Source: Malacoraja senta
Taxonomy: Eukaryota
Reading direction: 5' to 3'
Length of the DNA stretch: 64,000 bases
NCBI GenBank assembly: GCA_038087875.1
Contig: CM075992.1
Location: 7,938,001 to 8,002,000 of the forward strand
The notes under the pieces are model-generated. The model was not told the DNA's origin. It did not search any database and saw only the letters and a list, made by a program, of their open reading frames with translations. A program made the translations under genes and the position numbers. Numbering within the stretch: position 1 is the stretch's first letter; the number at the start of each line of letters is the position of its first letter. This document shows positions 11,100 to 62,095 of the stretch, piece after piece.

Positions 11100-11310
11100 A
11101 CATTACTTTAAAATGCTTACATCGCTTCGACCAAATCGAGGAAAATAAACAACCGCGAACAGCAAATACCGACTCAAGTAGCAATCAGACTGCGGACCGC
11201 TCGGACGCGGTCGGCATGAGCCGGCGCCTGTTCCCTGACTCTTTCAGTCCTGACCCCACTAACATGGCGAGATACGTCTCTCACATTCTCAGTGGCAACG
11301 GGTGTTAAAT
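11100..11310. promoter_or_regulatory. Putative CpG-rich promoter / first exon
   Basis: Local CpG cluster in non-repeat AT-rich DNA; YY1-like AACATGGCG (11261-11269); RFX half-site TGGCAAC; minus-strand donor GAT|GTAAGC at 11121/11120. Confidence 0.5.
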
Positions 11311-11321
11311 GCATTTTTTCA

Positions 11322-11468
<147 letters not shown>

Positions 11469-14400
11469 TCAGCACAGAACTGGCCTCAAAACACAATATT
11501 GGGAAAATCAATGTGAAACACGAGTGTCAGCGGGTAGACCCCAATTTTCTTTTAAATCAGTACTCAAAGAATTTGTGACGGCTCCCGAATTCCAATTGCG
11601 ATAAAACATTTTTTAATTAATTTTAGTACATTTCACTGTCGGTATTCCAAAAATCCATAAATGTCAAGAAAAATATAGTAGGAATGCAATTAAAAGTATT
11701 TAGCTGCTCAAATGGTTAGTGTTGATACGTGACTGACAACCGATTACACACGCTCAAACACACCATTACATACTAAATAAACTATTAATAGCATTCTGAG
11801 CAGAATTTCCTCAGTTAGATTCACTAGACTTAAAAAACGCAACAAAGAAAAAACCCACACAATTCAACGCCTTGCCTGTGGAACTTTAAATTGAATTTAA
11901 TAATAAAAATGGCCATAAAGCCTGATATTGATTAAAGCTGTAACATACATCTATAGCCTGCAATATCTTTGTTGGACCTGGCCATAAGCAACTGATTACA
12001 TGTAGAACAAGTGAAACCAAATATAGTAAAACTGTTTTTGAAATGTTGGAAAGTATGATACCAGTAACCAGAGTTTTTACAATTATTTTAAAACTTCAAC
12101 ATTTCATTCAAAGCCATCTGTCTTGATGCCAGGATAGTTGTTGCTAAAGCCCAGATTATTACATTTATGAACCTTATATAAACTAACTCTTAAACAAGCA
12201 CAATCTCCAAAATAAAAGCTCAGAACTGCAAAATGTGTTTGCTGAAACATAAAGCCATTTTTTAAATTCATATCCAAAATTCATACACACATTTCAGTTG
12301 TAGCAAATATGTCATATTCAGTTTCAGACTAAGTGAATATTTGAAGTTAAGTATGCACAATTTATTCAATTATGTCCATATATCCCATTCCATTGCAGAA
12401 AAGTTATAATAACTCTCTGTCTACACTTCAATAATGTGGAACAATGGGAAATAGCTTTAAACAATAGACAAAATACTTTTAGAACATATCAATATTTTAA
12501 CAAAGTAACAAAGCGATAAAGCAAAGAAGAGCTGCACAACAGAATCATACAAATGATTTCCAATCCATTGAAATTTAATTAAATACCTAGAGTACATTCA
12601 CAGGTAAGCATTATTTCTGCACCTGAAAACCTCTATTCCAGAACTAGATAGCAAAATACAGGAACATACAGAGGGAAACAAACAACTACTGGGTGTTTTG
12701 AAAAGCTGCCAAAAAATTCAATGTTTCTATTTACATCTTACAAACTTGTTAGATGTAGTGGGCTGATTATGGAAAATTAAGTAAAAATAATAACCCAGGA
12801 AGTAATCTCCAATCAATCACAATATTGCATTATAGTTGCAGCAAACACTCTTTGAAAGAAAATTGGAAAACTTGTACAGAACATGATTATCCAATGAAAC
12901 TTTTCAAATCTTGAGGCAAACTGTGCCTCAAGCAAAGCCACAGCAACTCCACACAGCCTATGATATAGCAAGGATAATTCATAGGGCTTAGCAATGAAAA
13001 GATTAGGCTATAAAACATTTGTTTGCAAAAATCACAAAATGCATGGAAAATGCCAGTGTTATAAAACATAACTGTAAATAGTCATTAACAAATTAACAAC
13101 TCAAAACCACGTGGAAGTCACTGTTCAGTTTAACTTGGTTCAGTTAAATGAGAAACTATAGTAGTCTGCCACACAAATGTTGTAAAATGTACTCTCCACT
13201 CCCTAGATTTCTTTGCGACGATGTAATCTGCACCTTACAATGCTTCAACAAGCAAATCAATTATTCTTCCTTTCACTTTCTATTACTTAGCCAGCAGAAA
13301 ACTTTAGTAGTATCAGTAGTTGAAAATTACTACAATTAGCTGGTCTTCTAGTTATTATAATCAAATATATGCAGCAAGGTTAAATTTCATATTTAACATA
13401 GGATTTGAGATGGAGTAAAATTACACACTCATGAAAAATATCAAACCGACTCCTATCTTTTACATTAGTCCAGTTTCTTGAGCCACTACAATTTGTCAAT
13501 TTATTTTTAAACAAAACATTCAGTTAGTTACACCATCTTTAAATATTTAACTACATTGTGGTAAAACCTCTATGCTGCTATTTTCGATCTTTCAGGAAAA
13601 AAAAATTAAGAACTAGATAGAAATGGCTAATATAAACACCAAAAACAGAAAGACTGGCGGTGAATTTGTTCTGTGATCTTTTCACCATCTCAACATGCAC
13701 AATACAAAAGATAGGTTTCACAACAATGTAATCAAAATGAAGATTAAATTGTGTTTACCCAAAAGGAACAAATATTAATCATGGAAGCGCAGAGTTGTAT
13801 GTCAAACTTTTACTTTAAATAATAAAGATAGTATAACTAATGACATAGCCAATCACATACTTCTACAAAAACATAGCCAACAATGCAGATAGGCCTGGTC
13901 GAATTATACCACTTAAGGAACATCCCCACCTGGAAGACTTAAAACATTTTATCATAATAAAATTCCCCCACCTTGTACAAGAATCAGAATCAACAAATCA
14001 TTCAAACGAGGTGACAGCGAACACTGCATTAAAATCTAAATAAATAAGGTACATCGTACCGTTTATTAGAGAAATTAAAATGTAGTGTTCAAATTCAGTC
14101 ACTGCAATCCAGAAACAGAAATACAAATATGTTCAAAATCTGATATCCTACATTTAAACGGAAATAAACTATGATAGCATATTAACTGTAGTTGCAAACT
14201 ATCAGTTAATTACTCAAAAAATGGCAAAAGATTATAAATATCACATTTATTGCCTTATTTATATGATCGAATTGTATTATACAAAATTAAAATCAAACTT
14301 TTTTTTTTAAGCTTTTATATTTTGCTAATGCATGTTTGTGGCAAATGTTTATGAAACATCGTCAGAACAATGGGTATGGGTGGAGCAAGTAGGTTGCAAT

Positions 14401-15552
14401 ACCTAAAAGCTGAACATAAAAGAGCAGCCCATGCCAACTTAATTTTCTTCTCCCTAATCTCTTATCCCATCCTGGTAACAATGCCAATACTGTGGTTGGC
14501 CTGATGACAAGTTGATGAATAGATTAATTATCCGTTGATTAAAATTTGTAATCAATTAATTGCTCTATAAAGCATATATAGTCAAAAAGATTAAAGTGCA
14601 AAGAGAATTTATGGATTCTTTTGGTATCTTTGTTCTCATCTAAATCAGAGTGCAATTACCACAGAATAAATACACTGAAATATAAACACAAATAAATAAT
14701 ACAATTCGCTAATATTGTGAAATATATGTTAAAACAATCACAAAAACTCTTACTGGCAACTTTAATTTTGTAACCCTAGATAATTTTTTTAATCTATTTA
14801 AAGTAACTGGTAACAGCAGCAGGTTTTAATATTTTGAGTAACATACAATTTTGATGCACATCTCTGCACATCAGCAGAAAAGTTTGAGAAAATTCTTTAC
14901 AATTCTTATTAGTCTGCTTTTAGTAACATGAATAAAAATACACTGCCATACGAGATTATGTGGGGAAATATGTGAACATTTTTTAAACAAACTATTTCAC
15001 TTAAGGGAGTCTTTTTTTTAATCTTCTCTTCCACTCTGCTAGTTTAATTTTTGATTCTATTCTTCAAAAATGTAGATGCATTATAGTTTTGGTTAATTGT
15101 ATTTGAATACAGCTTTAAGCCAGTTGCTTTTTAGTCTACATTAGTTCTTACCAAACATTTGATACAATTCTGAATAGAATGCCATTTAACTTTGGTGAAA
15201 AAAGTCAAACACCATACAAAATTATTCAACAAGTATTTCAATGAGTATAACCAACGTCGATTCTTTGAAGTAAATTAGATTGTCACTATCTATTTACAGT
15301 AACCAAGTGTTTGAAAACACATGATAGCTTCAATACAATCCATAGATTCCCATCAAACAAAATGTTTTCACTGCATCCGATCTTAATCTTATCTTGGGCA
15401 TATAAACATGTTAAAAAAAATACACAAAACTCTAATGGCGCTAAATCCACGCCTTTGTTGCCAAAAAATCGACTGCTAAATTATCAGCTCAAAAATCTTC
15501 CAATCTAAACAAAGTAATCAGTTTATTTTAACCAGCAACCTTTGCTTGCTCA

Positions 15553-15752
15553 NNNNNNNNNNNNNNNNNNNNNNNNNNNNNNNNNNNNNNNNNNNNNNNN
15601 NNNNNNNNNNNNNNNNNNNNNNNNNNNNNNNNNNNNNNNNNNNNNNNNNNNNNNNNNNNNNNNNNNNNNNNNNNNNNNNNNNNNNNNNNNNNNNNNNNNN
15701 NNNNNNNNNNNNNNNNNNNNNNNNNNNNNNNNNNNNNNNNNNNNNNNNNNNN
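15553..15752. other. Assembly gap (200 N)
   Basis: Run of N. Confidence 1.
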
Positions 15753-17500: not shown

Positions 17501-17977
17501 TTGCCCCCTCATGGATCTCCCAGTACCTCCACACAATTGCTCTGAGTTATGTAGGAAATAATAAAATATTGATATATTAACATTTTAATTCGATGATATA
17601 TCAACATGAAACCTGTGATTCATTCTGGCCTAATTATAGCAGCTCCGCTCGCTCCAGAGTTGCCTGCCTCAGCACGTTTTCAAAACTCCGAACCCATTAT
17701 TCTACTTGTTTATAAAACGTGAATTCTCTTTGCTCCACATCTCTGGAGACTGTCCTCAGAAGGCAGAGGAGAGTCTCTTGTTCTGGCAGAAAGCAAAGGC
17801 GTAAGGCAAACAGTGCAAGTGCTGTCAATTCTCCTGCAGATTGTGTCAGTAGAGCAGTTGGAGCCGTAATCCTCAAGTGTCTGAGGACAGAGAGACAGGG
17901 AAATGAAGGGACATTGGAGCATGGGGTGATGGGGAGAACACACACCAACGATAGAGCATTGTATAGGATGGAACTCC

Positions 17978-18597
17978 AGATAGACACAAAATGCTGGAGT
18001 AACTCAGCGGGTCAGGCAGCATCTCTGGAGAGAAGGAATGGGTGACGTTTCGGTTCGAGACCCTTCTTCAGACTGAGAGCCAGGGAAACGAGAGATATAG
18101 ACGGTGATGTAGAGAGGTGTAGAAAATATGAATGAAAGATATGCAAAAACGTAAAGATGATAAAGGAAACAAGCCATTGTTAGCTGTGGGCTAGGTGAGG
18201 ATGAGTACAGTGAGTGAGTGTGTGGAATTCTCTGCCTCAGAGGGTGGTGGAGGCAGGTTCTCTGGATGCTTTCAAGAGAGAACTAGATAGGTTTCTTAAA
18301 GATAGCGGAGTCAGGGGATGTGGGAAGAAGGCAGGAACGGGGTACTGATTGGGGATGATCAGGCATGATCACATTGAATGGCGGTGCTGGCTCGAAGGCC
18401 AAATGTCCTACTCCTGCACCTATTGTCTCTTGTCTATTGTCTACAGACAATGAGAATCAACAAGCTGACTTTGAAGCTGGTACGACTTGGGTGGGGGAGG
18501 GATGGAGAGAGAGGGGATGCAATGGTTACTTCAAGTGAGAGAAATCAATACGCATACCACTGGGTTGTAAGCTGCCCAAGCGAAATATGAGATGCAG
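17978..18597 (-). mobile_element. Penelope-like 3' end/pLTR, interrupted by a + strand CR1 fragment (~18220-18443)
   Basis: Collinear with 27930-28475; GIY-YIG C-terminal remnant and hammerhead-like core. Confidence 0.8.
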
Positions 18598-18634: not shown

Positions 18635-19135
18635 TTAGTTCAGTTTATTATCACGTGTACAGTGAAAAGCTTATGTTGCGTGCTATCCAGTCAGTGGAAA
18701 GATTATACATGATTACCGTCGAGCCGTCCACAGTGTACAGATACATGATAAGGGAATAACGTTTAATGCAAGATAAAGTCCAGTGAAGTCCGACCAAGGT
18801 TAGTCCAATGGTCTCCAATGTGGTTGATGCCAAGTCAGGACCGCTCTCTAGTTGGTGATAGGATGGATCAGTTGCCCGATAACAGCTGGGAAGAAACTGT
18901 CGTTGAATCGGAGGTGGTTAAGAAAGAACTGCAAGTGCTGGAAAAATCGAAGGTAGACAAAAATGCTGGAGAAACTCAGCGGGTGAGGCAGCATCTATGG
19001 AGCGAAGGAATAGGTGACGTTTCGGGTCCGAAACGTCACCTATTCCTTCGCTCCATAGATGCTGCCTCACCCGCTAAGTTTCTCCAGCATTTTTGTCCAC
19101 CTTTGAATCTGGAAGTGTGCGTTTTCACACTTCCG
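18635..19135 (-). mobile_element. Rex1/Babar-type LINE 3' end with a nested Penelope palindrome (~18918-19102)
   Basis: THTSRF..DSFFPAVIGQL motif; same 3' UTR as 52830-53185. Confidence 0.7.
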
Positions 19136-19382
19136 TACCTGGGTCTCTGGCGCTGTCAGGCAGCAACTCTACCGCTGCGCCACCGTGCCGCTCCGGGATA
19201 AAAGTGTTTGAAGAAGGGTTTCGGCCCGAAACGTTGCCTATCTCCTTCGCTCCATAGATGCTGCCGCACCCGCTGAGTTTCTCCAGCACTTTTTGTCTAC
19301 CTTCGATTTTCCAGCATCTGCAGTTCCTTCTTAAACATAAAAGTGTTATAGTGGGAGAGGCAGGAAGATGTGCGCGCAGGGT

Positions 19383-19812: not shown

Positions 19813-21080
19813 GAATCCAGGCAAAACATCGTACCATATACTTGGTACCACCCTTGAAGAATCCAAACAAACCAAGTATCTTGGCATCAAATTGCAGAAT
19901 GATCTGCGCTGGAATGGTCAGACTCATCATGCAACGGTGAAACATAGAAACATAGAAACATAGAAATTAGGTGCAGGAGTAGGCCATTCGGCCCTTCGAG
20001 CCTGCACCGCCATTCAATATGATCATGGCTGATCATCCAACTCAGTATCCCGTACCTGCCTTCTCTCCATACCCCCTGATCCCTTTAGCCACAAGGGCCA
20101 CATCTAGCTCCCTCTTAAATATAGCCAATGAACTGGCCTCGACTACCCTCTGTGGCAGAGAGTTCCAGAGATTCACCACTCTCTGTGTGAAAAAAGTTCT
20201 TCTCATCTCGGTTTTAAAGGATTTCCCCCTTATCCTTAAGCTGTGACCCCTTGTCCTGGACTTCCCCAACATCGGGAGCAATCTTCCTGCATCTAGCCTG
20301 TCCAACCCCTTAAGAATTTTGTAAGTTTCTATAAGATCCCCTCTCAATCTCCTAAATTCTAGAGAGTATAAACCAAGTCTATCCAGTCTTTCTTCATAAG
20401 ACAGTCCTGACATCCCAGGAATCAGTCTGGTGAACCTTCTCTGCACTCCCTCTATGGCAATAATGTCCTTCCGAAAGCAACAGGTGTCCTAAATTTTCTG
20501 AGGCGCAACTTTCATCATTGTTCAACTTCTGTCAAGGAGAAGCTATACTTCACCCTCGTTAGGACCTCATTTGGACTACGCAGTTGCAGCATGGGACCCA
20601 TACACAAATAAAAACATTTCTTCCATCGAACGTGTCCAAAGACAGGCAGCTCGATTTGTTACTAACACCTATGAGAGGAGAAGCGAGTGTTACCAAACTT
20701 CTGAATTCTCTGGGGTGGAACCCTCTCCAAGACAGACGTGAAGCTCACCGTTTGACCTGTTTTTACAAAATGTTAAATGGTCAGCTCGACATAGATTACA
20801 AGACCTACACCAAACCCAAACCAATTAGGAGCAGACGAGGGCATTCGATCCAATTTGAGATTCCAGCTACCAAGACAGATGTGTACACCAATTCATTCTT
20901 CCCCCGCACAATTACAGCATGGAATAATCTTCACCCAACCATAGTTACCCAACCAGATGCAACTAAATTTAAGGTAGCTCTTTCTTCCCAAAAACCCTTT
21001 CTGGCTTAAGCCCTCCCTCCACCACCTCCAGTTTAAATTCCATTTGGAATATTTTGGAGGACCAAGAAACCAAGAACCAA
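19813..21080 (+). mobile_element. Divergent CR1-group LINE 3' portion (invertebrate-like), (AACCAAG)n tail, 7-bp TSD
   Basis: YLGIKLQNDLRWNGQ..LRRNFHHCSTSVKEKLYFTLVR..LGWNPLQDRR..TNSFFPRTITAWNNL; GAACTAG at 19806 and 21081. Confidence 0.8.
19940..20471 (-). mobile_element. Young CR1/HER1 3' fragment nested in the previous LINE
   Basis: ORF 20042-20446 QRRFTRLIPGMSGLSYEERL...GYGEKAGTGY; (TTTCTATG)n tail. Confidence 0.95.
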
Positions 21081-25326: not shown

Positions 25327-25564
25327 TCTGCTGGATTCTTCAAGGCTTCTTCAAAGGTTGAGCAGGGTGGTTACCAAAATACATTCCCAGCCACCCTGAC
25401 CTAGTCTTCGTTCCACTTATTCAACATCAATCAGGGACTTACCAATTGTCCCATGATTTTATCCAATTTGGACTCATTCATCAGTCTGAAGAAGGGTTCC
25501 GACTCGAAACGTCACCCATCCTTTTTATCTTGACTCCAGAGATGCTGCCTGACCCGCAGAGTTA

Positions 25565-26252
25565 AGGCCCTGTCCCACTTACGTGTCCTTGGCACGCAAA
25601 TTACGCGACCTCGTCGTTGCGTTGAGGCGCACGGGCATCGTGTGGCCGTGCGGGGCCGGTCCCACTGAGAAGCGCGGAGGGGTATGGAGTTGTGCGCGGT
25701 ATCACGCGACGCTCCGAAATTTTGTAGCGAACAAAATCTTCGCGCGCCACCGGCCTGTCGCGTAACTGACGGCCAAAGTGGGACAGGCCCAAGACCCTGG
25801 CACGACGCAACGTCTCACCTCCAACAGCAGCAGAAGCAGCCAAACGATCGCCGAGCTCGGCCTGGGGCTCACGGCCGTTGCGGATCCGGATCCGCCCCCA
25901 CTTCTACTCCCAGAGCAGGGCCAAGAAAATTGAAGAGAGACACGAAATGCAGGAGTAACTCAGCAGGACCGGCAGCAACTCTGGAGAGAAGGAATGGGTG
26001 ACGTTTCGGGTCAAGACCCTTCTTTCAGACTGAAGAAGAGTCTCGACCCAAAACATCACCCATTCCTTCTCTCCAGAGATGCTGCCGGTCCCACAGAGTT
26101 ACTCCAGCATTTTGTGTCTATCTTCAAATGACGTCACACGCTCCAGACGGCTGTGCGGGCGCATGATGACGCGCACGACTCTCGCGGGACCGTCGCGCCT
26201 CAACACGACCACGAGGTCACGTAGTTAGCGACACGTAAGTGGGGCAGGGGCA
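25565..26252. mobile_element. Harbinger-type MITE carrying a Penelope palindrome, inserted into another Penelope remnant
   Basis: TIRs aggccctgtcccacttacgtgtc / gacacgtaagtggggcaggggca; TTA TSD restores gagTTActc. Confidence 0.8.
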
Positions 26253-26394: not shown

Positions 26395-26792
26395 GATGGG
26401 CACAAACAGCTGGGGTAACTTAGCGGGTCAGGCAGCATCTCTGGAGAAGGAAAAAAACGGTGATGTTTCAGGTCTGAACCCTTCTTCAGACTGAAAGATA
26501 GAAGGGTCTGAAGAAGGTAGACAAAAATGCTGAAGGGACTCAGCGGGTGAGGCAGCATCTATGGAGCGAAGGAATAGGTGATGCTGCCTCACCCGCTGAG
26601 TTTCCCCAAGATTTTTGTCTACCTTCGATTTTTCCAGCATCTGCAGTTCTTTCTTAAACAGGGTCTGAAGAAGGGTTCCCAGCCAAAATGTCATTTCTTC
26701 TCTCCAGAGAAGCTGCCTGTCCCACTGAGTTACTCCAGCTTTTTGTGTCTATCTTCAGTGTAAGCCAGCATCTGCAGTTCTTTCCTACACAT
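26395..26792. mobile_element. Nested Penelope-derived palindromes
   Basis: One subfamily's palindrome inside another; AGGGTCTGAAGAAGG repeated. Confidence 0.75.
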
Positions 26793-27750: not shown

Positions 27751-27929
27751 TTGGGAGTTAACAATTCATCCATTCATTACAGCTCCCTGGATTAGAGCAG
27801 GTAGTCTTATAGGTTCCTATAAAAGATGCATGGTAACTCACAAGCCTCGTGAGACGATTCTCCTCGCTCCTTCGCGTTCAACTACACACACGGTATTCAC
27901 TGAATCTAAAGTATTATGAACGTGACCAC

Positions 27930-28475
27930 TGAAGATGGGCGCAAAATGCTGGAGTAACTCAGCGGGACAGGCAGCATCTCTGGAGAGAAGGAATACGTGA
28001 CGTTTCGGGTCGAGACCCTTCTTCAGACTGAGGATCAGGGGAAAGATAAACGAGAGATATAGACGGCGATTTCGAGAGATATAGAACAAATGGATGAAAG
28101 AAAAATAACAATGACAAAGGAAACAGGCCATTGTTAGCTGTGGGCTAGGTGAAAACGAGTTACAGACAATGAGACTCAACAAGACGACTTTGAAACTAGT
28201 ACAATGACTAGGATGGTGGAGGGAGAGAGAGGGGATGCAAGGGTTACTTGAAGTTAGAGAAATCAATGTTCATACGCTGTAAGCTACCCAAGTGAAATAT
28301 GAGGTGGTGTTCCTCCACTTTGCGCTGGGCCTCACTCTGACAGTGGAGGAGGCCCAGGACAGAAAGGTCAGTGTGGGAATGGGAGGGGGAGTTAAAGTGT
28401 TTGGCAACCGGGAGATCAGGTAGGCCTGAGCGAAGGTGTTCAGCGAAACGATCGCCCAGTCTACGTTTGGTCTTT
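27930..28475 (-). mobile_element. Penelope-like retroelement 3' end: GIY-YIG endonuclease remnant plus pLTR
   Basis: TKRRLGDRFAEHLRS..PVAKHFNSPSHSHTDLSVLGL..RKVEEHHLIFHLGSLQ..MNIDFSNFK, followed by the repeat unit seen across the window. Confidence 0.9.
27998..28030 (-). ncRNA. Minimal type I hammerhead ribozyme core (Penelope pLTR)
   Basis: cagt-CUGAAGA-A-GGGU(CUCG)ACCC-GAAA-CGUC-acg; helix I is weak. Confidence 0.6.
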
Positions 28476-28892
28476 TCACTGCATCCAACCAATCGCCCCA
28501 GAGATAGCTATTGCTGCAGAACTTATTCCCGTGGACCATGTTGAACTCTTGAGAAGGTCATTAAGACAAAAGCGCTTATCTTTTACATTCTATTAGTTCA
28601 TACTTGATAGTTTTATCGTGTGTTTATTTCAAGGCAATATATCAAGTTCCTCTTTGATGTCCACACTGTATTAATGATGTGTTTCTTGCAGCAAGGTTGG
28701 AGTGGAGGTGTCTGCGTGATACACCGGCTCTCAGGGTTATCAACGATGTTTAGTGGCAGCGCGAAAGAAGGAACTGCAGATGCTGGATTACAACAACAAA
28801 AAAGATACAATGTGCTGGAGTAACTCAGCAGATCAGGCCCAATGTGGAGTACACAGATTGGTGACATTTCAGGTTGGGACACTTCTTCAGAC

Positions 28893-29287
28893 CAAAGATC
28901 CTATAGCGGAGCAAGATAGCCCACTCGACGAAAAAGACGTAGTACGGTCATGGGCTGATTCATGGGTAATTTTCGGCCCCATTTCCGTAACCGGCTTCCG
29001 TCTCCGCACCAAAGATCCCATAGCGGAGCAAAGATACTAGTGCGGAGACGGAAGCCGGTTACGGAAACATCCTGGTAAAAATAAAAGTTCTTTGGTAAAA
29101 ATCTTCTCCTCATTTTCAGAATTATAATTTATTAACACAAACTGTTCCCCCGCAACGTTGATTACACTGCGAGTCGGGTCGGGTCAGGTTACTGAAATGG
29201 GTGAAAAAAAGGGCCACGTTGCGTACTACACGTCAGCCCATTGCATTTAGCAGGAGTGGTCTATCTTGCTCCACTATAGGATCTTTG
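28893..29287. mobile_element. hAT-like MITE (copy 1) inside a Penelope palindrome
   Basis: TIR caaagatcctatagcggagcaagatag; 8-bp TSD CTTCAGAC/CTTCAGAT. Confidence 0.75.
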
Positions 29288-29551
29288 CTTCAGATTGGAA
29301 TAAGGTCCCGACCCAAAACGTCACTTATCCAAGTTCCCCAGCTATGCTGCCTGACCCGCTGAGTTTCTCCAGCACTTTGTGAGTTTAGTGGCCGCGCGTT
29401 GCTGTGCTCTGCCACCTCCCTCTTGTCTTCACCGGCACATATCTCCCCAGGTCACCTCTGGCATTTTGCATCAAACACCATTCAATTGCAATCGGAAAAA
29501 CCGCAGCAAAACGCTGGTGCGGCTGTTAGAGCTGCAACCTTGCAGCGCCAG

Positions 29552-31030: not shown

Positions 31031-31624
31031 TCTAGAACATGCAAACTCCACACAGACAGCACCCGAGGTGAGGGATTGAACTCGGTTCTCTGGTGCCGCG
31101 AGACAGCAGCTCGACCCGTTGCGCTACTGTACTTGCCTTGTGCTGCTGCCAAGGAGTTAGAATGATTCAAAATTAGTTGGGAGCTTCAACAATCATCCCT
31201 CCATTTCATGGGCTCGTAAAGCTGAGGAATATAATCTTCTCCTTAAGAGGAGTGTTTCTGGAGTAGAGCTTCAGGGCTTCCAAGATGTGTTTCAACAAGC
31301 GACGTGTTTATACGGTGTAATCACTGCGGCAGTGTGAGAATTGCTTCTGATATTTAGCTTTTCAAAAGGTCCTATAGATAACAGTGAAGTGCTGCAAGTG
31401 GCGAGGTAAAATGTTGGGGGAAGTTGGCTGATAAAAAGCTCTTGGTTAGGGATTCCAAATTCTTGCGGCTAGTCGGGTAGTTTTAAAATATTGAGGAAGA
31501 AGGAACTGCAGATGCTGGATTACAACAACAAAAAAGATACAATGTGCTGGAGTAACTCAGCAGATCAGGCCCAATGTGGAGTACACAGATTGGTGACATT
31601 TCAGGTTGGGACATTTCTTCAGAC

Positions 31625-32034
31625 CAAAGATTCTATAGCGAGCAAGATAGCCCACTCGACGAAAAAGACGTAGTACGGTCATGGGCAGATTCACGGGTAA
31701 TTTTCGGCCCCATTTCCGTAACCGGCTTCTGTCTCCGCACCAAAGATCCCATAGCGGAGCAAAGATAACTAGTGCGGAGACGGAAGCCGGTTACGGAAAC
31801 ATCCTGGTAAAAATAAAAGTTATTTGGTAAAAATCTTCTCCTCATTTTCAGAATTATAATTTATTAACACAAACTGTTCCCCCGCAACGTTGATTACACT
31901 GCGAGTCGAGTCGGGTCGGGTCGGGTTACTGAAATGGGTGAAAAAAAGGCCCACGTTCCGCTCTGTTGCGTACTACACGTCAGCCCATTGCATTTAGCAG
32001 GAGTGGTCTATCTTGCTCCGCTATAGGATCTTTG
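31625..32034. mobile_element. hAT-like MITE (copy 2) inside a near-identical Penelope palindrome
   Basis: Same TIR, TSD and host sequence as 28893-29287. Confidence 0.75.
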
Positions 32035-32415
32035 CTTCAGATTGGAGTAGGGTCCCGACCCAAAACGTCACTTATCCAAGTTCCCCAGCTATGCTGCCTG
32101 ACCCGCTGAGTTTCTCCAGCACTTTGTGAGTTTAGTTTTGTTCAGTTCAGTTGAGGGATTCGGCGCAGAAACAGTCCCTTCGGCCCACCAAGCCCGTGCT
32201 GACCAGCGATACCCGTACACTAGCACTATCCTAAACATACTAAGGACAGTTCACAATATTTACCAAGCCAATCAGCCCACAAACCTGTACGTCTTTGGAG
32301 CGTGGGAGGAAACCGGAGATGCCGGAGAAAACCCACGCGGTCACGGGGAGAACGTACAAACTCCGTACAGACAGCACCCGTAGTCATGATCGAACCTGGG
32401 TCTCCGGCGATGTCA

Positions 32416-32974: not shown

Positions 32975-33823
32975 ATAGAAACATAGAATCATAGAACATA
33001 GGTGCCATTCGGCCCTTTGAGCCTGCACCGCCATTCAATATGATCATGGCTGATCATCCAACTCAGTATCCTGTACCTGCCTTCTCTCCATACCCCCTGA
33101 TCCCTTTAGCCACAAGGGCCACATCTAACTCCCTCTTAAATATAGCCAATGAACTGGCCTCAACTGCTTTCTGTGGCAGAGAGTTCCACAGATTCACCAC
33201 TCTCTGTATGAAAAAAAATGTTTTTCTCATCTCGGTCCTAAAAGACTTCCCCCTTATCCTTAAACTGTGACCCCTTGTTCTGGACTTCCCCAACATCGGG
33301 TACAATCGTCCTGCATCTAGCCTGTCCAACCCCTTAAGAATTTTGTAAGTTTCTATAAGATCCCCCCTCAATCTTCTAAATTCCAGCGAGTACAAGCCGA
33401 GTCTATCCAGTCTTTCTTCATATGAAAGTCCTGCCATCCCAGGAATCAGTCTGGTGAACCTTCTCTGTACTCCCTCTATGGCAAGAATGTCTTTCCTCAG
33501 ATTAGGAGACCAAAACTGTACGCAATACTCCAGGTGTGGTCTCACCAAGACCCTGTACAACTGCAATAGAACCTCCCTGCTCCTATACTCAATTCCTTTT
33601 GCTATGAATGCTAACATACCATTCGCTTTCTTCACTGCCTGCTGCACCTGCATGCCTACTTTTAATGACTGGTGTACCATGACACCCAGGTCTCGTTGCA
33701 TCTCCCCTTTTCCTAATCGGCCACCATTCAGATAATAGTATACTTTCCTGTTTTTGTCGCCAAAGTGAATAACCTCACATTTATCCACATTAAACTGCAT
33801 CTGCCATGCATTTGCCCACTCTC
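32975..33823 (-). mobile_element. Young 5'-truncated CR1/HER1 LINE with an open 245-aa ORF2 C-terminus (33063-33800)
   Basis: MQFNVDKCEVIHFG..RDLGVMVH..LVRPHLEYCVQFWSP..RVVNLWNSLP. Confidence 0.95.
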
Positions 33824-34404
33824 CGTGTTCCTCAGAGAATGGAGAACAGGGAACTGGAGTAATCCAGCGGGTCAGGCAGCATCTCTGAAGAACATGGATT
33901 AGTGACGTTTCAGGTCGGGATCTTTCTCCAGACTGCTAGGTGACTTGAAAAGTCGCTTATCCATGTTCTCCAGAGATGCTGCCTGACCCGCTGAGTTACT
34001 CCAACACTTTGTGTCTTTTTTTTGTCCCGTCTGAATAAGGGTCCAGACCCGAAACGTCACATATTGATATTCTCCAGAGATGCTGCCTGACCCGCTGGGG
34101 GTTCCCCCAGCACTTCATTGAAAACTTCTTTTCTGTAAACCGCCATCTGCAGTTCCTTGTTTCTACATGTCCTCCAGAGAACCTGCCCAACACTTTAAGT
34201 TGCCACAGCCATAAGTTGGCCATAAGGCTTACATTTATATTGAACTCTTCACAACCCTGGACCTAACTCACCTCTCGCAAGCGATGAGGCACTGCTGATA
34301 CATGGGCGGGTGTGGTAATGAAGGAAATGAAATTGTTCATTTGCACTGAGGAATGTGCAATATTGCAGTGGGCAGATAATCTGTTTTGGATCTGTTGATT
34401 GAAG

Positions 34405-36258: not shown

Positions 36259-36515
36259 GGTACACAAAAATGCTGGAGAAACTCAGCAGGTGCAGCAGCA
36301 TCTATGGAGCGAAGGAAATAGGCAACGTTTCGGGCTCCTCCTCCGCCTTTTTCCTTTTTTCCTTTCTTCTCCCCACCCCCTATCAGTCTGAAGAAGGGTT
36401 TCGGCCCGAAACGTTGCCTATTTCCTTCGCTCCATAGATGCTGCTGCACCCGCTGAGTTTCTCCAGCATTTTTGTGTACCTTCGATTTTCCAGCATCTGC
36501 AGTTCCTTCTTTAAC
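36259..36515. mobile_element. Penelope-derived palindrome with an intact hammerhead-like core at 36388-36415
   Basis: CTGAAGAAGGGTTTCGGCCCGAAACGTT; TCTACCTATCACTTG duplicated on both sides. Confidence 0.8.
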
Positions 36516-36612
36516 ACTCTACCTATCACTTGCCAGGCTTGGTCCTGCCCCCACCTCCCTTTTCCAGCTTTCTCACTCTGACGCCCAGCAGGCTGAGGAT
36601 GAGTCCAGACCG

Positions 36613-42132: not shown

Positions 42133-42294
42133 TCAAGGCTTCACTCTGTGTCGAACCCTGCACAGTGTAGGGTTAGAGCTCCATCTGCTTCCTGCAGAGG
42201 GAGATGTATTCAGCAGCTGCGCAGGTCCAGGTGACCAGGATGCTGCCGCCGTCCGTCTCTCACTGTTCATTTTTCACAAGCTACGAGTCGGCGA

Positions 42295-42722
42295 AATTCC
42301 CTTCCCATTCCCACACTGGCCTTTCTGTGCTGGGCCTCCTCCACTGTCAGAGTGAGGCCCAACGCACAAAGTGGAGGAACGGCAACTCATATTTCACTCG
42401 GGCAGTTTACAACCCAACGGTATGGATATTGATTTTTCTAATCTAAAGTAACTCTTACATCCACTCTCGCTCTGTCTCTCCCCCACCCTAGTCGACCCAC
42501 TCCTTATCACCTGGCCCCACCTCACCTGATCATCGTTGCTAGGCTTAAGATGTTCATTGCATATCTTTCATTCATTTGTCCTTTTACCTTTCCGTACCCC
42601 TAGTTTCCCTCTCCCCCCAACTCTCAGTCTGAAGAAGGGTCTCGACCTAAAACGCCGCCTATTCCTTCTCTCTAGAGATGCTGCCTGACCCGCTGAGTTA
42701 CTCCAGCATTTTGTGTCTATTT
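42295..42722 (+). mobile_element. Penelope-like 3' end (GIY-YIG remnant plus pLTR)
   Basis: PSHSHTGLSVLGLLHCQSEAQR..GSLQPNGMDIDFSN. Confidence 0.85.
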
Positions 42723-42728
42723 TCCATG

Positions 42729-45705: not shown

Positions 45706-45865
45706 ATAGACACAAAATGCTGGCGTAACTCAGCGGGACAGGCAGCATCTCTGGAGAGACGTTTCGTGTCGAGTCCCTTCGTGTCGTGTCTGAAGAAGTG
45801 TCCCCCGTTCCTTCTCTCCAGGGATGCTGCCTGCCCCGCTGAGTTAATTAGCATTTTGCGTCTAT

Positions 45866-46470
45866 CTTCTGCAGTTGTATAGGGCTCTGGTGAGACCACA
45901 TCCGGAGTATTGTGTGCAGTTTTGGTCTCCTAATTTGAGGAAGGACATCCTTGTGATTGAGGCAGTGCAGCGTAGGTTCACGAGATTGATCGCTGGGATG
46001 GCGGGACTGTCATATGAGGAAAGATTGAAAAGACTAGGCTTGTATTCACTGGAGTTTAGAAGGATGAGGGAGAATCTTATAGAAACATATAAAATTATAA
46101 AAGGACTGGACAAGCTAGATGCAGGAAAAATGTTCCCAATGTTGGGCGAGTCCAGAACCAGGGGCCACAGTCTTAGAATAAAGGGGAGGCCATTTAAGAC
46201 TGAGGTGAGAAAAAACGTTTTCACCCAGAGAGTTGTGAATTTGTGGAATTCCCTGCCACAGAGGGCAGTGGAGGCCAAATCACTGGATGGATTTAAGAGA
46301 GAGTTAGATAGAGCTCTAGGGGCTAGTGGAGTCAAGGGATATGGGGAGAAGGCAGGCACGGGTTATTGATTGGGGACGATCAGCCATGATCACAATGAAT
46401 GGCGGTGCTAGCTCGAAGGGCCGAATGGCCTCCTCCTGCACCTATTTTCTATGTTTCAATGTTTCTATGT
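45866..46470 (+). mobile_element. CR1/HER1 3' fragment
   Basis: ORF 45875-46369. Confidence 0.95.
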
Positions 46471-48790: not shown

Positions 48791-48884
48791 AGACCTGGTG
48801 GGCCTGTTTCCACGCTGTATCTTTCAATCAATTCATTCCTAGACCAAGTGTTAAAGAAGGAACTGCAGATGCTGGAATAAAGAA

Positions 48885-48920
48885 GGGTCTGAAGAAGGGT
48901 TTCGGCCCGAAACGTTGCCT
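48885..48920 (+). ncRNA. Minimal type I hammerhead ribozyme motif (best-formed copy)
   Basis: GGGU-CUGAAGA-A-GGGU(UUCG)GCCC-GAAA-CGUU-GCCU; helix I GGGU/GCCU. Confidence 0.65.
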
Positions 48921-49609
48921 ATTTCCTTCGCTCCATAGATGCTGCTGCACCCGCTGAGTTTCTCCAGCACTTTTGTCTACATTCCTAGATCAACGTTGGT
49001 TTCAGTTTACAGTTTTCAGTTCAGTTTATTGTCACGTGTACCCAGGTACAGTGAAAAGCTTTTGTTACGAGCTATCCAGTCAGCGGAAAGACAATACGTG
49101 ATTACAATCGAGCCATTTACAGTGTACAGATACATGATAAGGGAATAACGTTTAGTGCAAGGTAAAGCCAGCAAAGTCTGATCAAGGATAACGAGGAAGA
49201 GAAGGAGAGGTTAGACACAAAATGCTGGACTAACTCAGCGGGACAAGGCAGCATCTCTGGGGAGAAGGAATGGGTGACGTTCCGGGTCGAGACCCTTCTT
49301 CAGACTGACGTTCCGGGTCGAGACCCTTGTAACTCCAGCTTTTTGTGTCTATCTTCGGTTTAAACCTGCAACTGCAGTTCCTTGTCACACAGGAGAAGGA
49401 GAGGAGTCGAGGCCACTGTAGAGAGGTGAGTGCTGACCCTGGTCAGATGCACTGCTCTTGGTGGCAGCTTTCAGTCCGTGGGTCTCCTCCCCGACACCCA
49501 GCCCTGCTGGAGCAGCTTCAGCCACGATGCTAGTGACCGTGAAATACGGCGTAAACCTGGTGCTGTCGATCACGTCAGGGATGGAGTGCTTCCACTGCAG
49601 AAGGGCAGA

Positions 49610-51327: not shown

Positions 51328-52315
51328 AACATATAACATTCTTAGGGGTTTGGACAGGTTAGATGCAGGAAAAATGGTCCCCATATTGGGGGAGTCCAGA
51401 ACCAGGGGTCACAGTTTAAGAATAAGGGGTCGGCCATTTAGGACTGAGATGAGGAAAAACTTTTTCACCCAGAGTTGTGAATCTGTGGAATTCTCTGCCA
51501 CAGATGGCAGTGGAGGCCAATTCACTCCTATATGTCTCCAAGAGAGAGTTAAGGGCCTGTCCCACTTGGCCGTCATTCGCGCGCCATTTACGCAACCTGC
51601 TAGCGTGTGGGTAACGCGTGGGTAGCGCGGGGACGGGCGCATGGAGTGGTGTGGAGGAGTGCGGAGTGGCGTGGAGGAGTGTGGGCTTCGTCCTGAACGA
51701 AATCTTCGCGCGCCACCTGCCTGTCGCGTAACTGAGGGCCAAAGTGGGACAGGCCCAAGACCCTGGCGCGGCGCAACGTCTCACCTCCAACAGCAGCAGA
51801 AGCAGGCAAACGATCGCCGAGCTCGGCCTGGGGCTCACGGCCGTTGCGGATCCAGATCCGCCCCCACCCCTACTCCCAGAGCGGGGCCAAGACGATTGGA
51901 GATAGACACAAAATGCAGGAGCAATGGGTGACGTTTCGGGTCGAGACCCATCTTCAGACTGAAGAAGAGTCTCGACCCAAAACGTCACCCATTCCTTCTC
52001 TCCAGAGATGCTGCCTGTCCCGCTGAGTTACTCCTGCATTTTGTGTCCATCTTCAATTGATGTCACGCGCTCCAGACGGCTGTGCGGACGCATGATGACA
52101 CGTGCGACTGTCGCGCGTCAGTCACTGTCGTGTAAATGACGGCCAAGTGGGACAGGCCCTTTAGATTTAGCTCTTAGGGCTAACAGAATCAAGGGATATG
52201 GGGAAAAAGCAGGAACGGGATTCTGATTATGGATGACCAGCCATGATTATATTAAATGGCGGTGCTGGCTCGAAGGGCCGAATTACCTAATCCTGCATCT
52301 ATTTTCTATGTTTCT
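51328..52315 (+). mobile_element. CR1 3' fragment split by a MITE
   Basis: agagagagTTA|gatttagctc is restored on removing the MITE. Confidence 0.9.
51552..52160. mobile_element. Harbinger-type MITE carrying a Penelope palindrome
   Basis: TIR agggcctgtcccacttggccgtcatt; perfect TTA TSD; interior homologous to 25565-26252. Confidence 0.85.
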
Positions 52316-54145: not shown

Positions 54146-54743
54146 TATAGGGGGTTGTACATAAGGTCACTGGGTCATAGGGCTCACTGCATTGCAGCAA
54201 CAGTAAGGCATTATTTGTAGGTTTTCTTGATTCCTTTGGTATCTAAAAAGTCTCAGAAGTGATAAATCTGGTTGTAATTTTTGCTTCAGATGCGTTTTAT
54301 TTTTGTATGTAAAAACCCACTTGAGAACCATGGGCGATTTCAACATTTTACAGCCAGATTTATCCCTTCTGAAACTTTTTAGATGCCAAAGGAATCAAGA
54401 AAAATCACAAATAATGCCTTAGTTGATGAAATGCAGTGAGCAAGGCCAATGTTCGCCAAGCACTTTGGCTGTTGTTGTTCCTTTCAGCTCTCGCTTCAAT
54501 CTACCGTAATTTCTCCTCACTTTTTGAATTCTGAAGTTGGCTAAATGTCTCTCACGCTTATCCCGATTTCCATAATTATTTACAGCGCAAATATTGACCA
54601 TTTCGGCGGGTTTTAACGGGCCCGCTACGCTGGAAACAATGGTAAGTGCCTGCCTGCAGTTCATCGCGTGTACTCCACTTGGCGTAGTGTAGCAACAGTA
54701 CGGGTCATGGGTCGTGACCCGACTGCCGTGAAACCTCCCTATA
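54146..54743. mobile_element. Unclassified TIR element with a large internal inverted repeat
   Basis: Termini TATAGGGGGTT / AACCTCCCTATA; internal arms ~54182-54277 and ~54348-54441. Confidence 0.6.
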
Positions 54744-58148: not shown

Positions 58149-58665
58149 AATACAATAGATAGACACAAAAAGCTGCAGTAACTCAGCGGGTTAGGCAGCT
58201 TCTCTGGAGAAAATGGAATGGATGACGTTTCAGGTCGAGACCCTTCTTCAGACTCTGGGGAAGGGTCTTGACACAAAACGTCGCCCATTCCTTTTCTCCA
58301 GAGATGCTGCCTGACCCGCTGAGTTACTCCAGCTTTTTGTTTCTATCTTCGGTGTCAACCAGCATCTGCATTTCCTCCCTACACTTCTATACTCAAAGAC
58401 TGATGGAGACCTGACTGATATAGGACAACCAGGGTGCGGGAGGGGATGGGGGAAGAGAGGGGATGCAAGGGCTACTTGAAGTTGGAGAAGTCAATGTTCA
58501 TACCGCTGGGGTGTAAGCTGCCCAAGTGAAATATGAGGTGCTGTTCCTCCAATTTAAACTGTCCAAGCGAATCGTACTGTGTTGCGAGGCCAATAAGTTT
58601 CAGGCACGGCAAAGAGCGTCCTTCACTGGAGTGACGATCTACTCCAATGCAGAGATTTCAACACC

Positions 58666-59040
58666 TGGGGGCGGAGTTGGAGTTGGATTCACGGGAGGTT
58701 GGCCTTGGAGGGGAGGATGCTCCTCAAACTGTGGACCATACAGCTCACCCCCTCCATGACACACTGGTCAACCTGAGGAGCACCTTCAGCAACAGACTGG
58801 TTCCACCAAGATGCAGCACAGAACGCCACAGGAGATCCTTCTTCCCTGTGGCTATCAAACTGTACAACTCCTCCCCCTTCTGTCGTGGGGTAGACTGAAT
58901 CCCCTCTCCCCCCCCTCCAATCCTTTCCACTCGTCACTTTAATTTCATGTTTCATGTATCTTGTGTTTTATGACAGTTGGCAGATCAATGTCCCTCGTGG
59001 GATAAATAAAGTTCTATCGTGTCGCATTGTATCGTATCGT
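58666..59040 (+). mobile_element. Rex1/Babar 3' fragment
   Basis: HPLHDTLVNLRSTFSNRLVPPRCSTERHRRSFFPVAIKLYNS. Confidence 0.85.
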
Positions 59041-59049
59041 TTTATCGCA

Positions 59050-59745
59050 AGCACGAAAGTTGGCGTGCAGGTACAGCAGGCAGTGAAGAAAGCTAATGGA
59101 ATGTTGGCCTTCATAACAAGAGGATTTCAGTATAGGAGTAAAGAGGTTCTTCTGCAGTTGTATAGGGCTCTGGTGAGACCACATCTGGAGTATTGTGTAC
59201 AGTTTTGGTCTCCTAATTTGAGGAGGAACATCCTTGTGATTGAGGCAGTGCAGAATAGGTTCACGAGATTGATCCCTGGGATGGCGGGACTGTCATATGA
59301 GGAAAGATTGAGAAGCCTAGGCTTGTATTCACTGGAGTTTAGAAGTATGAGGGGGATCTTATAGAAATATATAAAAATATAAAAAGACTGGACAAGCTAG
59401 ATGCAAGAAAAATGTTCCCAATGTTGGGCGAGTCCAGAACCGGGGGCCACAGTTTTAGAATAAAGGGGCGGCCATTTAAGACTGAGGTGAGAAAAAACGT
59501 TTTCACCCAGAGAGTTGTGAATTTGTGGAATTCCCTGCCACAGAGGGCAGTGGAGGCCAAGTCACTGGATGGATTTAAGAGAGAGTTAGATAGAGCTCTC
59601 GGGGCTGGTGGAATCAAGGGATATGGGGAGAAGGCAGGCACGGGTTATTGATTGGGGACGATCAGCCATGATCACAATGAATGGCGGTGCTGGCTCGAAG
59701 GGCCGAATGGCCTCCTCCTGCACCTATTTTCTATGTTTCTATGAA
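59050..59745 (+). mobile_element. CR1/HER1 3' fragment (frameshifted)
   Basis: VQQAVKKANGMLAFI..LVRPHLEYCVQFWSP. Confidence 0.95.
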
Positions 59746-60011
59746 AGTTGGAGTAAAGAAGAAAAAGGAATGTCCCCCGACTCTCAGTCTGAAGAAGGGC
59801 CTCGACCCGAAACGTCACCCATTCCGTCTCTCCAGAGATGCTGCCTGTCCCACTGAGTTACTGCAACATTTGTGTCTATCTTCGGTGTATATCCAGCATC
59901 TGCAGTTCCTTCCGACACGGAACAGAGACTGTGTCTCTTTACAATGTTGTGTAAAGTCGCAGAGCCCCAGGCAATGCGAGAGGCTTATCCACCTCCTCCC
60001 CCCATCCTATC

Positions 60012-60585
60012 ATGCATGCTGACCGGTTGCATTGTGGCTTGGTTCGGCAACTTGAGCGCCCAGGAGCGGAAAAGACTGCAAAAAGTAGTAAACACTGCCC
60101 AGTCCATCATCGGCTCTGACCTCCCTACCATCGAGGGGATCTATCGCAGTCGCTGCCTCAAAAAGGTTGGCAGCATCATCAAGGACCCACACCATCCTGG
60201 CCACACACTCATCTCCCCGCTACCTTCAGGTAGAAGGTACAGGAGCCTGAAGACTGCAATGTCCAGGTTCAGGAATAGCTACTTCCCCACAGCCATCAGG
60301 CTATTAAACTCAACTCAAACAAAACTCTGATCATTAATAGCCCATTATCTGTTTATTTGCACTTTATCTGTTTATTTATTGATGTGTGTATATATTTATA
60401 TAATGGTATATGGACACACTGATCTGTTCAGTATTCATGTCTACTTCGCTCCATAGATGCTGCTGCACCCGCTGAGTTTCTCCAGCATTTTTGTGTACCT
60501 TCATGTCTACTATGTTCTGTTGTGCTGAAGCAAAGTAAGAATTTCATTAACCAGTCTGGGACACCTGACAATAAACTCTTGAGTC
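60012..60585 (+). mobile_element. Rex1 LINE 3' fragment with a small Penelope insert (TSD TTCATGTCTACT)
   Basis: LTGCIVAWFGNLSAQERKRLQKVVNTAQSIIG..LPSGRRYRS..RFRNSYFPTAIRLLN. Confidence 0.9.
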
Positions 60586-61475
60586 TATCCAGCAGCATCT
60601 TACACACTATCAACTAAAGAATTGGTTTCATTGTGAAAGCTTTAACTTCAGTTATATTCAGTGAGATTGGCCCGAGGGGGAACGAGAAAGCTGGTGTTAT
60701 TTTTGAGCAAGGCGTGTGTAATCTTTGTAATACACTTTGTTTGTTCGACTGGCTCTGTGTTAAGCGTTGGTTAATACATCATCAGTCCGATTAGATGGAA
60801 ATTATTTTATGAAACTCCAGCTAGAATATATCAGCTGAGTGGCTGGGTCTTTCAGAGTGAGGTCGGGAAATTTGTGAATTTGGGTATTGAGATACAGCAT
60901 GGAAACAGGCCCATCGGCCCATCGAGTCTACGCTGACCATCGATCACCTGTACACTAGTTCTATCCCACACACTAGGGGCAATTTTACAATTTTACCATA
61001 GCCAATATTCTTTTGCTCTGGTACTTTCTTTCATTCTTCACATGTTTAAATTATAACATGTCACAGCATCAGAAGCCTGGATCGCCTCAGCGCAGAGGGA
61101 GAACAAAGCGGGAAGAGACAGAGACTTTAAGACTTTTGCCTCCATCACAGTGAGGTGCCTGGTGAACTCACTGTGGTGGATGTTAATTTGTGTTTATTGT
61201 GTGTTTTGTCATTTATTATTATATGTATGACTGCAGGCAACGAAATTTCGTTCAGACCGAAAGGTCTGAATGACAAATAAAGGAATCTCTAATCTCTATA
61301 ATTATGGGAGGGCTGGTCCCCCAACGCAATATTCCACCGCTCCACCAATTCCAATATTGGTGGCCAGTGGGGGGAGGGGGTGGGGCTTTCTGGAGCGCTA
61401 GTATGTGTGTTGTGGGCCGAAGGGGCTGGTTTCCAGAGGGGCTAGTATGGACATTGTGGGCCGAATGGATTCTTG

Positions 61476-61815
61476 GGCTGGCAGCTCAGTCACTCAGGCC
61501 TGGTGGGCTGGCAGCTCAGTCACTCGGGGCTGGTGGGCTGGCAGCTCAGTCACCCATGGCTGGTGGGCTGGCAGTTCAGTTACTCAGGGCTGGTGGGCTG
61601 GCAGATCAGTCATTCAGGGCTGGTGGGCTGGCAGTTCAGTCACTCAGGACTGGTGGGCTGGCAGCTCAGTCACTCAGGCCTGGTGGGCTGGCAGCTCAGT
61701 CACTCAGGGCTGGTGGGCTGGCAGCTCAGTCACCCATGGCTGGTGGGCTGGCAGCTCAGTCACCCATGGCTGGTGGGCTGGCAGATCAGTCACTCAGGGC
61801 TGGTGGGCTGGCTGT
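61476..61815. repeat. 30-bp minisatellite, about 11 copies
   Basis: GGCTGGCAGCTCAGTCACTCAGGGCTGGTG. Confidence 0.97.
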
Positions 61816-61841
61816 TCACTCACGGCTAGTCCATGAAATTC

Positions 61842-62095
61842 CATTTCAAGCAGAGTGCAGGCCAGCAAATTCAATTTCATAGCATTTCAAGCAGAGTGCA
61901 GGCCAGCAAATTCAATTTCATAGCATTTCAAGCAGAGTGCAGGCCAGCAAATTCAATTTCATAGCATTTCAAGCAGAGTGCAGGCCAGCAAATTCAATTT
62001 CATTGCATTTCAAGCAGAGTGCAGGCCAGCAAATTCAATTTCATAGCATTTCAAGCAGAGTGCAGGCCAGCAAATTCAATTTCATAGCATTTCAA
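61842..62095. repeat. 41-bp minisatellite, about 6 copies
   Basis: CATTTCAAGCAGAGTGCAGGCCAGCAAATTCAATTTCATAG. Confidence 0.97.

Follow-up and report, generated by a model that had tools for sequence, protein, structure and literature searches.

What are the short repeats that give rise to the sequence at positions 48885–48920 of this 64,000-nucleotide stretch of Malacoraja senta DNA (hereafter the window)? The locus carries the core of a minimal hammerhead ribozyme, and such repeats could be the debris of a Penelope-like element (PLE), a retrozyme-like family in their own right, or ribozymes at work on host transcripts. The locus is made up of the following parts, with core positions named in hammerhead numbering (C3, G8, A9, 10.1, G12, 15.2–16.2).

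48834–48847, no strand: left target-site duplication, 14 bp, with one mismatch to the right one
48847–48886, minus strand: inverted arm, almost only tail (+92 to +131), head to head with the body
48885–48888, plus strand: helix I 5′ strand, pairing with 48917–48920 over 4 bp, two of them G-U
48887–48984, plus strand: 5′-truncated element body, beginning at the hammerhead start and reaching the short, tail-less 3′ end (about +97 from C3)
48889–48916, plus strand: minimal hammerhead core, subfamily B1
48889–48895, plus strand: CUGAAGA, with the extra A at 48896
48897–48900 with 48905–48908, plus strand: helix II
48909–48912, plus strand: GAAA; palindrome ACGT at 48912–48915; predicted cut after 48916
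48980–48993, no strand: right target-site duplication

The unit 48834–48993 is a complete example of such an insertion, consisting of a 14-bp duplication, an inverted tail-only arm and then the body. The 5′ strand of helix I at 48885–48888 is, judging from its sequence, apparently the product of a short core duplication at the 5′ junction; hammerhead copies with native upstream sequence have a helix I of 2 bp.

The core at 48889–48916(+) and that at 36388–36415(+) both read CTGAAGA-A-GGGT(TTCG)GCCC-GAAA-CGTT, confirming the hammerhead-like cores that the initial annotation had placed there. On the minus strand at 27998–28030 the motif is also present, although the true core is 28026–27999 and the annotated span had included a few flanking bases, and the core at 59789–59816(+), described as having one mismatch, has a single one, located in helix II. 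The loose pattern CTGANGA-N8-30-GAAA matched the window 18 times, compared with 4.7 ± 2.3 in 100 shuffles (none of which reached 18), and the 28-nt core with up to three mismatches matched 18 times in the window and not at all in the shuffles. An anchor scan of the window gave 48 hits, from which one duplicate anchor and one short partial duplication were removed, resulting in 46 copies (25 plus, 21 minus). Both core boxes, UH, the 4-bp helix II and the ACGT palindrome are all intact in six copies (G12 at 25506, 28006, 36408, 48909, 51937 and 58231), three on each strand, and the remaining 40 are broken, so the picture of a frequent short repeat with many mutated copies holds. Intact motifs on the same strand are spaced 6.3–23.9 kb apart. 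The hammerhead-bearing PLE family covers 7,137 bases, or 11% of the 64-kb window.

Across 32 independent copies, the majority base fits the published PLE hammerhead consensus at each core position (Fig. S3 of PMC4209133), which supports the proposal that the motif is the minimal hammerhead of PLEs. The extra nucleotide between A9 and 10.1 is A in 31 of the 32 and T in the other, while the 10.1–11.1 pair is G-C in 18, G-U in 5, A-U in 2 and unpaired in 2 (n = 27). Helix II is paired in 91.7% of cells. The palindromic 15.2–16.2 is CG in 31 of 42 copies, with 8 of the other 11 being CpG decay products, and helix I comprises two contiguous pairs in five of the six intact copies and four in copy 48889–48916. 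The two subfamilies had been described as differing in helix II with pairing retained in both; pairing is indeed kept, but the difference is a one-sided change from U-A to U-G plus a loop change, with no compensatory pair. With a 2-bp helix I, the motif departs from the canonical type I hammerhead (helix I of about 6 bp, loop 1–loop 2 contacts). None of the 13 matches that an Rfam scan of the window returned up to E = 5 was to a hammerhead family.

A PLE origin of subfamily A is evident from the longest copy, 28492–27921(−), in which the last part of a GIY-YIG endonuclease ORF is followed by a UTR and then by a subfamily A hammerhead. The window holds four PLE endonuclease remnants, found in the following features.

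28244–28492, minus strand: C-terminal 82 aa of a PLE GIY-YIG endonuclease ORF (P0001), stop codon included, preceding the subfamily A hammerhead
28028–28243, minus strand: UTR/pseudo-LTR of about 215 nt that closes with a pyrimidine tract and, separated from the core by one base, an AG (candidate 3′ splice site)
27921–28027, minus strand: subfamily A hammerhead (intact core 28026–27999) and conserved block downstream
42276–42727, plus strand: second such copy, with endonuclease-coding sequence (from 42276–42448), UTR and mutated hammerhead
17976–18594, minus strand: third such copy, with endonuclease remnant (18594–18529), UTR and hammerhead, and another repeat inserted at about 18221–18441
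58157–58705, minus strand: endonuclease remnant (58705–58475) adjoining an inverted pair
58157–58265, minus strand (intact core 58251–58224), and 58241–58385, plus strand (tailed): the inverted pair

In three of these (28492–27921, 42276–42727 and 18594–17976) the hammerhead of subfamily A follows the PLE ORF. The proposed Penelope derivation is thus upheld directly for subfamily A only, and subfamily B1 is linked to the ORF only via its homology to A (about 84% over 87 nt). P0001 is 64–67% identical to three Hypanus and Mobula PLE proteins (three of five longer relatives), with the alignment to P0004 showing 65% identity (E 2e-31); these relatives by themselves point to a probable ray or skate as the host. 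Read by eye, the relatives P0003–P0005 contain an RT motif, a CX2-5CxxC linker and GIY-YIG; the RT motif and linker are also visible in P0089 and P0151, and the corresponding part is absent from the window. P0003–P0005 match Pfam PF01541 at E 0.0005–0.002, under the curated cut-off, and a Pfam scan of P0001 alone gave no match. A wider protein search found 462 relatives at E ≤0.001, some of them full-length 800-residue ORFs, while no full-length PLE or RT sequence is present in the window. The CX2-5CxxC linker defines Neptune and Nematis PLEs (PMC8557442); our Neptune-like assignment is made on this motif in the relatives rather than on a tree, and Nematis has the same linker. Four host-type protein records (P0007, P0014, P0008 and P0079) contain the PLE endonuclease end as an insert or C-terminus, representing either exonised PLE pieces or gene-model errors.

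The ends of the copies show how they were inserted. Seven window copies used as BLAST queries identified 66 arms, grouped in 48 units; the arm ends are those of the BLAST alignments, which palindromes and divergent UTRs blur. Among the 57 arms reaching the 3′ part, 32 end at +85 to +110 and 21 at +120 to +135 from C3, two clusters about 35 nt apart that correspond to the absence or presence of the tail. PLEs are reported to carry an optional tail of 30–40 bp, and in the anole element the tail marks two internal RT start sites (PMC11167929). Target duplications (score ≥10) were found for 9 of 48 units compared with 5 of 500 random pairs outside simple repeats (p = 2e-7), the control having been restricted in this way after at least 13 of 299 random pairs scored high with simple repeats included. 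The duplications are 10–15 bp long. There are 13 head-to-head junctions, of which 12 are independent (one false entry was excluded). The range of arrangements is illustrated by these copies.

1659–1869, no strand: head-to-head pair, one arm tailed, with a 13-bp target duplication
18914–19106, no strand: head-to-head pair joined in loop II (subfamily B2)
19201–19340, plus strand: solo B1 copy, hammerhead start to tail end, with an 11-bp target duplication
25486–25513, plus strand: intact core of a divergent copy
33854–34162, no strand: inverted arm and partial head-to-tail tandem (33941–34016, 34029–34162), without a complete intact motif
36259–36520: B1 unit with an arm at 36259–36335(−), about 55 nt of native pyrimidine-rich upstream sequence, the intact core 36388–36415(+) and tail, and a 15-bp target duplication
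51917–52058, no strand: head-to-head pair joined at the hammerhead start, with intact core 51957–51930(−)
59771–59920, plus strand: tailed subfamily A copy, core 59789–59816 with one helix II mismatch

The PLE hairpins at 51917–52058 and 25925–26126 have their junction, mutations and flanks in common, and were therefore copied within a larger repeated unit. A composite of a head-to-head PLE pair with an element of about 400 bp at the junction is present twice (28764–29381 and 31492–32128), and the element splitting the pairs has inverted ends. At 49276–49338(−), a partial core breaks off at the predicted cut site, where the beginning of another core is attached; a 33-base step back of this kind is seen in 13 contigs of public run X1 and 3 of X15, and the joint could be explained by 3-base microhomology.

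Inverted PLE pairs would also form long hairpins if transcribed. Those at 1733–1835, 18975–19079, 45726–45846 and 51915–52002 coincide with Rfam miRNA matches, which are below gathering scores, and we rejected a miRNA identity for them. The top Rfam match (59 bits, gathering 195) is an AT-rich, non-PLE long inverted repeat at 54206–54421. The surrounding sequence is uneven, with an AT-rich (GC about 0.29–0.39), repeat-poor block at 5200–15550 ending at an N gap (15553–15752), beyond which GC is about 0.48–0.55 and repeats are dense. One LINE ORF family, presumably CR1-like, has left many 3′ fragments (20042–20488, 33063–33935, 45848–46369 and 58894–59364); other LINE ends are found at 20563–21009 and 59857–60330, and neighbouring minisatellites at 61474–61823 (30 bp × 11.7) and 61842–62095 (41 bp × 6.2).

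For the 5′ ends, we removed from the 66 arms 11 that were duplicated composites, upstream-only pieces or fragments, and a further 11 running into native UTR, leaving 44. Relative to a uniform null, these are concentrated at the hammerhead start (−13 to +4; 23 of 44 arms, p = 2e-8) and at +11 to +17 (9 of 44, p = 0.001), with no enrichment at the cut site (+26 to +31; 3 of 44, p = 0.40). By reading, an inverted arm or target duplication bounds at least 14 of the 23 hammerhead-start ends; the others could be divergent UTRs. Public contigs from four runs, probably of related species (best word share 0.56), were aligned to 27900–28520. Summed contig depth, which is no copy number, reaches 3.5e7 over the core in run X1 and has dropped to 1.0e6 at a distance of forty bases upstream, and the profile has a like shape in the three other runs. 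Heterogeneous loose ends lie behind 28029 in 1,008 public contigs, and 8 of the 15 joints listed switch strand with one side at 28024–28032; no pile of loose ends occurs at 27998/27999 among the 24 entries listed. The copies normally span the predicted cut site and have their 5′ ends elsewhere, and the template is therefore normally uncut by the ribozyme. Copying stops at the hammerhead 5′ edge or in loop II, and because both places are short palindromes, fold-back priming is suggested, as has been proposed for rotifer PLEs (PMC3846280).

Taken as a whole, we consider it probable that the copies are 5′-truncated insertions from several subfamilies of an endonuclease-bearing, Neptune-like PLE with a minimal type I hammerhead in its terminal repeat. 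The initial annotation had instead proposed a retrozyme-like, non-autonomous family. No tandem array of units with complete motifs is present among the 33 TRF rows for the window, and none of the partial tandems (26580–26792, 33941–34162 and 49276–49338) holds two complete motifs. Because of this, and with the copies showing the signatures of truncated PLE insertion, we read them as 5′-truncated PLE insertions and not as retrozymes. A broader version, in which the 100–135 nt units form a separate family (SINE-like or retrozyme monomers) mobilised in trans by PLE protein, their short RNA either starting at the hammerhead or being cut from tandem copies, is in our judgement unlikely. It would account for the sharp 5′ boundary at the core start (the 23 of 44 arms, the depth step and the loose ends at 28029), as a pile-up of 5′ ends at one point is also expected from a short dedicated RNA. 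Summed contig depth over the core is about four times the peak over the endonuclease-coding sequence, and short forms therefore dominate; head-to-tail joints of the short unit (‘goes back 86’) occur in 20 contigs of run X1, and dimers therefore exist somewhere in relatives. B1 copies in the window are ORF-less and 94–97% identical to copy 48889–48916, and Li et al. 2026 (bioRxiv 10.64898/2026.07.22.740005) report retrozymes in one chondrichthyan genome. However, self-cleaved RNA would start at +29, close to which lie just the 3 of 44 arms noted above, units are not arrayed in tandem, and a continuous series of longer copies extends into the ORF. A tRNA-headed SINE was rejected, with 0 tRNA genes in the window.

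With the copies read as truncated PLE insertions, we asked what their ribozymes do. Core mismatches (33 of 352, 9.4%, in 32 independent copies) are as frequent as those in the downstream block (92 of 1086, 8.5%, in 28 copies; p = 0.59), and an excess of core conservation over flanks, whose lack the initial annotation had named as one half of what would speak against it, is absent. Dead copies should behave in this way, and the result leaves a working ribozyme in the source element unrefuted. C11.1 and G12 make up a CpG that provides an internal control, reading TG in 7, CA in 6 and TA in 1 of 42 copies. TG keeps pairing and CA loses G12, so the lethal G12A is about as common as the tolerated change within the same CpG. 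The covariation score is 0.197 compared with 0.186 when shuffled, with 115 of 500 shuffles as high and a two-sided change in one of six pairs, where the copies are very alike and decaying neutrally. Bases 10.1–10.4 pair with 1.1–1.4 in 89.8% of cells, compared with the 91.7% for helix II. In folding models with no tertiary contacts and no positive control, the probability of helix II is ≤0.07 in 10 of 10 monomers and the double-hammerhead fold lies 23–40 kcal/mol above the dimer minimum, predicting that inactive pairings are favoured over the active fold. Published minimal motifs show no cutting as monomers and weak cutting as dimers (PMC4209133), with eight of nine published Xenopus dimers uncut, and for the anole element cleavage is protein-assisted and hammerhead mutants do not impair insertion in vitro (PMC11167929). 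The genomic copies look dead, while the motif of the source element may still work.

These results bear on the earlier suggestion that some copies might cleave host transcripts. It finds no support here, given that 40 of 46 copies are broken, that the intact ones are divided evenly between strands and lie kilobases apart on the same strand, and that G12A is about as frequent as its tolerated counterpart. That the dispersed copies are active ribozymes cutting host transcripts, and are kept for that, we regard as very improbable, even though 6 of 46 keep all core features, copy 48889–48916 has a 4-bp helix I, and with so many copies help from trans dimers or PLE protein is conceivable (protein-assisted cleavage, PMC11167929). 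Against it are the lack of excess conservation and of covariation above shuffles, the lack of strand bias (25 copies plus and 21 minus, with three intact ones on each strand), the folding models, which disfavour the active helix II and double hammerhead (no positive control), and the published inactivity of minimal motifs as monomers and in most Xenopus dimers. In addition, no host exon was recognised by eye among 133 open stretches in the non-repetitive DNA of the window.

At the other extreme, the hammerhead-like string could be a degenerate vestige even in the source element, kept for a splice acceptor, a protein-binding hairpin or a coding frame. The 2-bp helix I, the near-equal pairing of 10.1–10.4 with 1.1–1.4, and the harmlessness of hammerhead mutants to anole-element insertion in vitro would suit such a reading. 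We nevertheless find it scarcely credible, as the majority base fits the published consensus at every core position across subfamilies with differing UTRs, and a 2-bp helix I is also present in six rows of the published alignment (PMC4209133 Fig. S3). A conserved reading frame through the core and tail was not established, with frames differing among nine copies.

Immediately upstream of the core is a candidate splice acceptor. In each of the 11 copies whose upstream sequence is native, an AG immediately precedes the base in front of C3, and no further AG occurs within 20 nt; at least four UTR types are represented, and 10 of the 11 copies show 63–93% pyrimidines. The AG also belongs to a palindrome, TCAG-T-CTGA, whose other half is the core start. 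No GT..AG joint into this AG was found among the 15 joints listed of 626 in the public contigs, and no donor was identified. D. virilis Penelope has an intron whose end falls at helix I (PMC4209133, PMC2377424), and several rows of the published alignment have a similar U-rich tract and AG (PMC4209133). Use of the candidate 3′ splice site, a single base ahead of the core, would substitute a new 5′ strand of helix I, and helix I would become longer in all subfamilies if the first exon ended in G bases. We therefore put forward, tentatively and as a doubtful extension of the preferred reading, that the hammerhead start is a functional switch, where splicing could turn the ribozyme on in spliced mRNA only, unspliced RNA, kept inactive by a hairpin, serves as template, and reverse transcription begun at the tail yields the 100–135 nt units in large numbers by stopping or folding back there. 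If this were true, hammerhead-headed, often palindromic units would be a very abundant SINE-like family and a source of long hairpins in ray genomes.

Returning to the truncated-PLE reading, the likely sequence of events is as follows. The hammerhead would lie in the PLE terminal repeat, about 215 nt after the ORF stop, as seen for subfamily A. The RT-endonuclease would nick DNA with a 10–15 bp stagger, consistent with the duplications, and reverse transcription would begin inside the element's own RNA, about 97 or 131 nt after C3, consistent with the two 3′ ends; internal initiation is borrowed by analogy from the anole element (PMC11167929). Copying would pass through the uncut hammerhead, given that copies span the cut site, and would stop or switch template at its 5′ edge or loop II, where ends pile up, with the short palindromes there possibly giving head-to-head inverted arms by fold-back. 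Inserted copies would then decay neutrally, as those in the window do, leaving dispersed copies mostly inert. In the source element, the ribozyme probably cuts tandem read-through RNA slowly, aided by protein or by dimer formation, and may be held off by a competing hairpin.

This arrangement closely resembles the minimal hammerheads described in PLE pseudo-LTRs by Cervera and de la Peña 2014 (PMC4209133), which share CUGANGA-H, G10.1–C11.1, GAAA, the palindromic 15.2–16.2 and UH, are situated after the PLE ORF, occur mostly as dispersed single motifs from truncated PLEs, and form close pairs on opposite strands. The 4-bp helix II and 2-bp helix I of the window are at the short end of the published range (helix I 2–6 bp), and no cartilaginous fish is among the rows consulted of Fig. 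S3 and Table S1. Neptune-clade endonuclease-bearing PLEs (PMC8557442) and Poseidon_Ac of the green anole (PMC11167929) likewise have a C-terminal GIY-YIG, the linker (seen here in the closest relatives), 5′ truncation, partial tandems, an inverted 5′ copy and an optional 30–40 bp tail, whereas the window holds 3′ ends only, and a strong pile-up of 5′ ends at the hammerhead start is not described in the parts of these two papers that were consulted. Drosophila virilis Penelope (PMC2377424; PMC4209133) has a 2-bp helix I with the 3′ end of an intron on its 5′ side, similar to the pyrimidine tract and AG that are set off from the core by one base in the window, although the fly intron is proven by RT-PCR and the acceptor here is a candidate from sequence. 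Animal non-LTR retrozymes (PMC7229834; bioRxiv 10.64898/2026.07.22.740005) are also short and non-coding, with a type I hammerhead and kinship to PLE pseudo-LTRs, but are tandem repeats with a complete hammerhead per unit (canonical in PMC7229834) and form circular RNAs, whereas the window units are dispersed or inverted, minimal and mostly broken. Searches of the literature turned up no account of this family from rays or skates, although it may be among the chondrichthyan families of Li et al. 2026.

Neither a new retrozyme family nor regulation of host RNA is supported by the analysis. What it adds is a cartilaginous fish to the animals in which minimal hammerheads are known from PLE terminal repeats, together with the finding that hammerhead PLE stubs can occupy a tenth of a genomic window, where dense insertions map the starts and stops of reverse transcription relative to the ribozyme. 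These copies raise the question of whether splicing or PLE protein switches on a motif with a 2-bp helix I.
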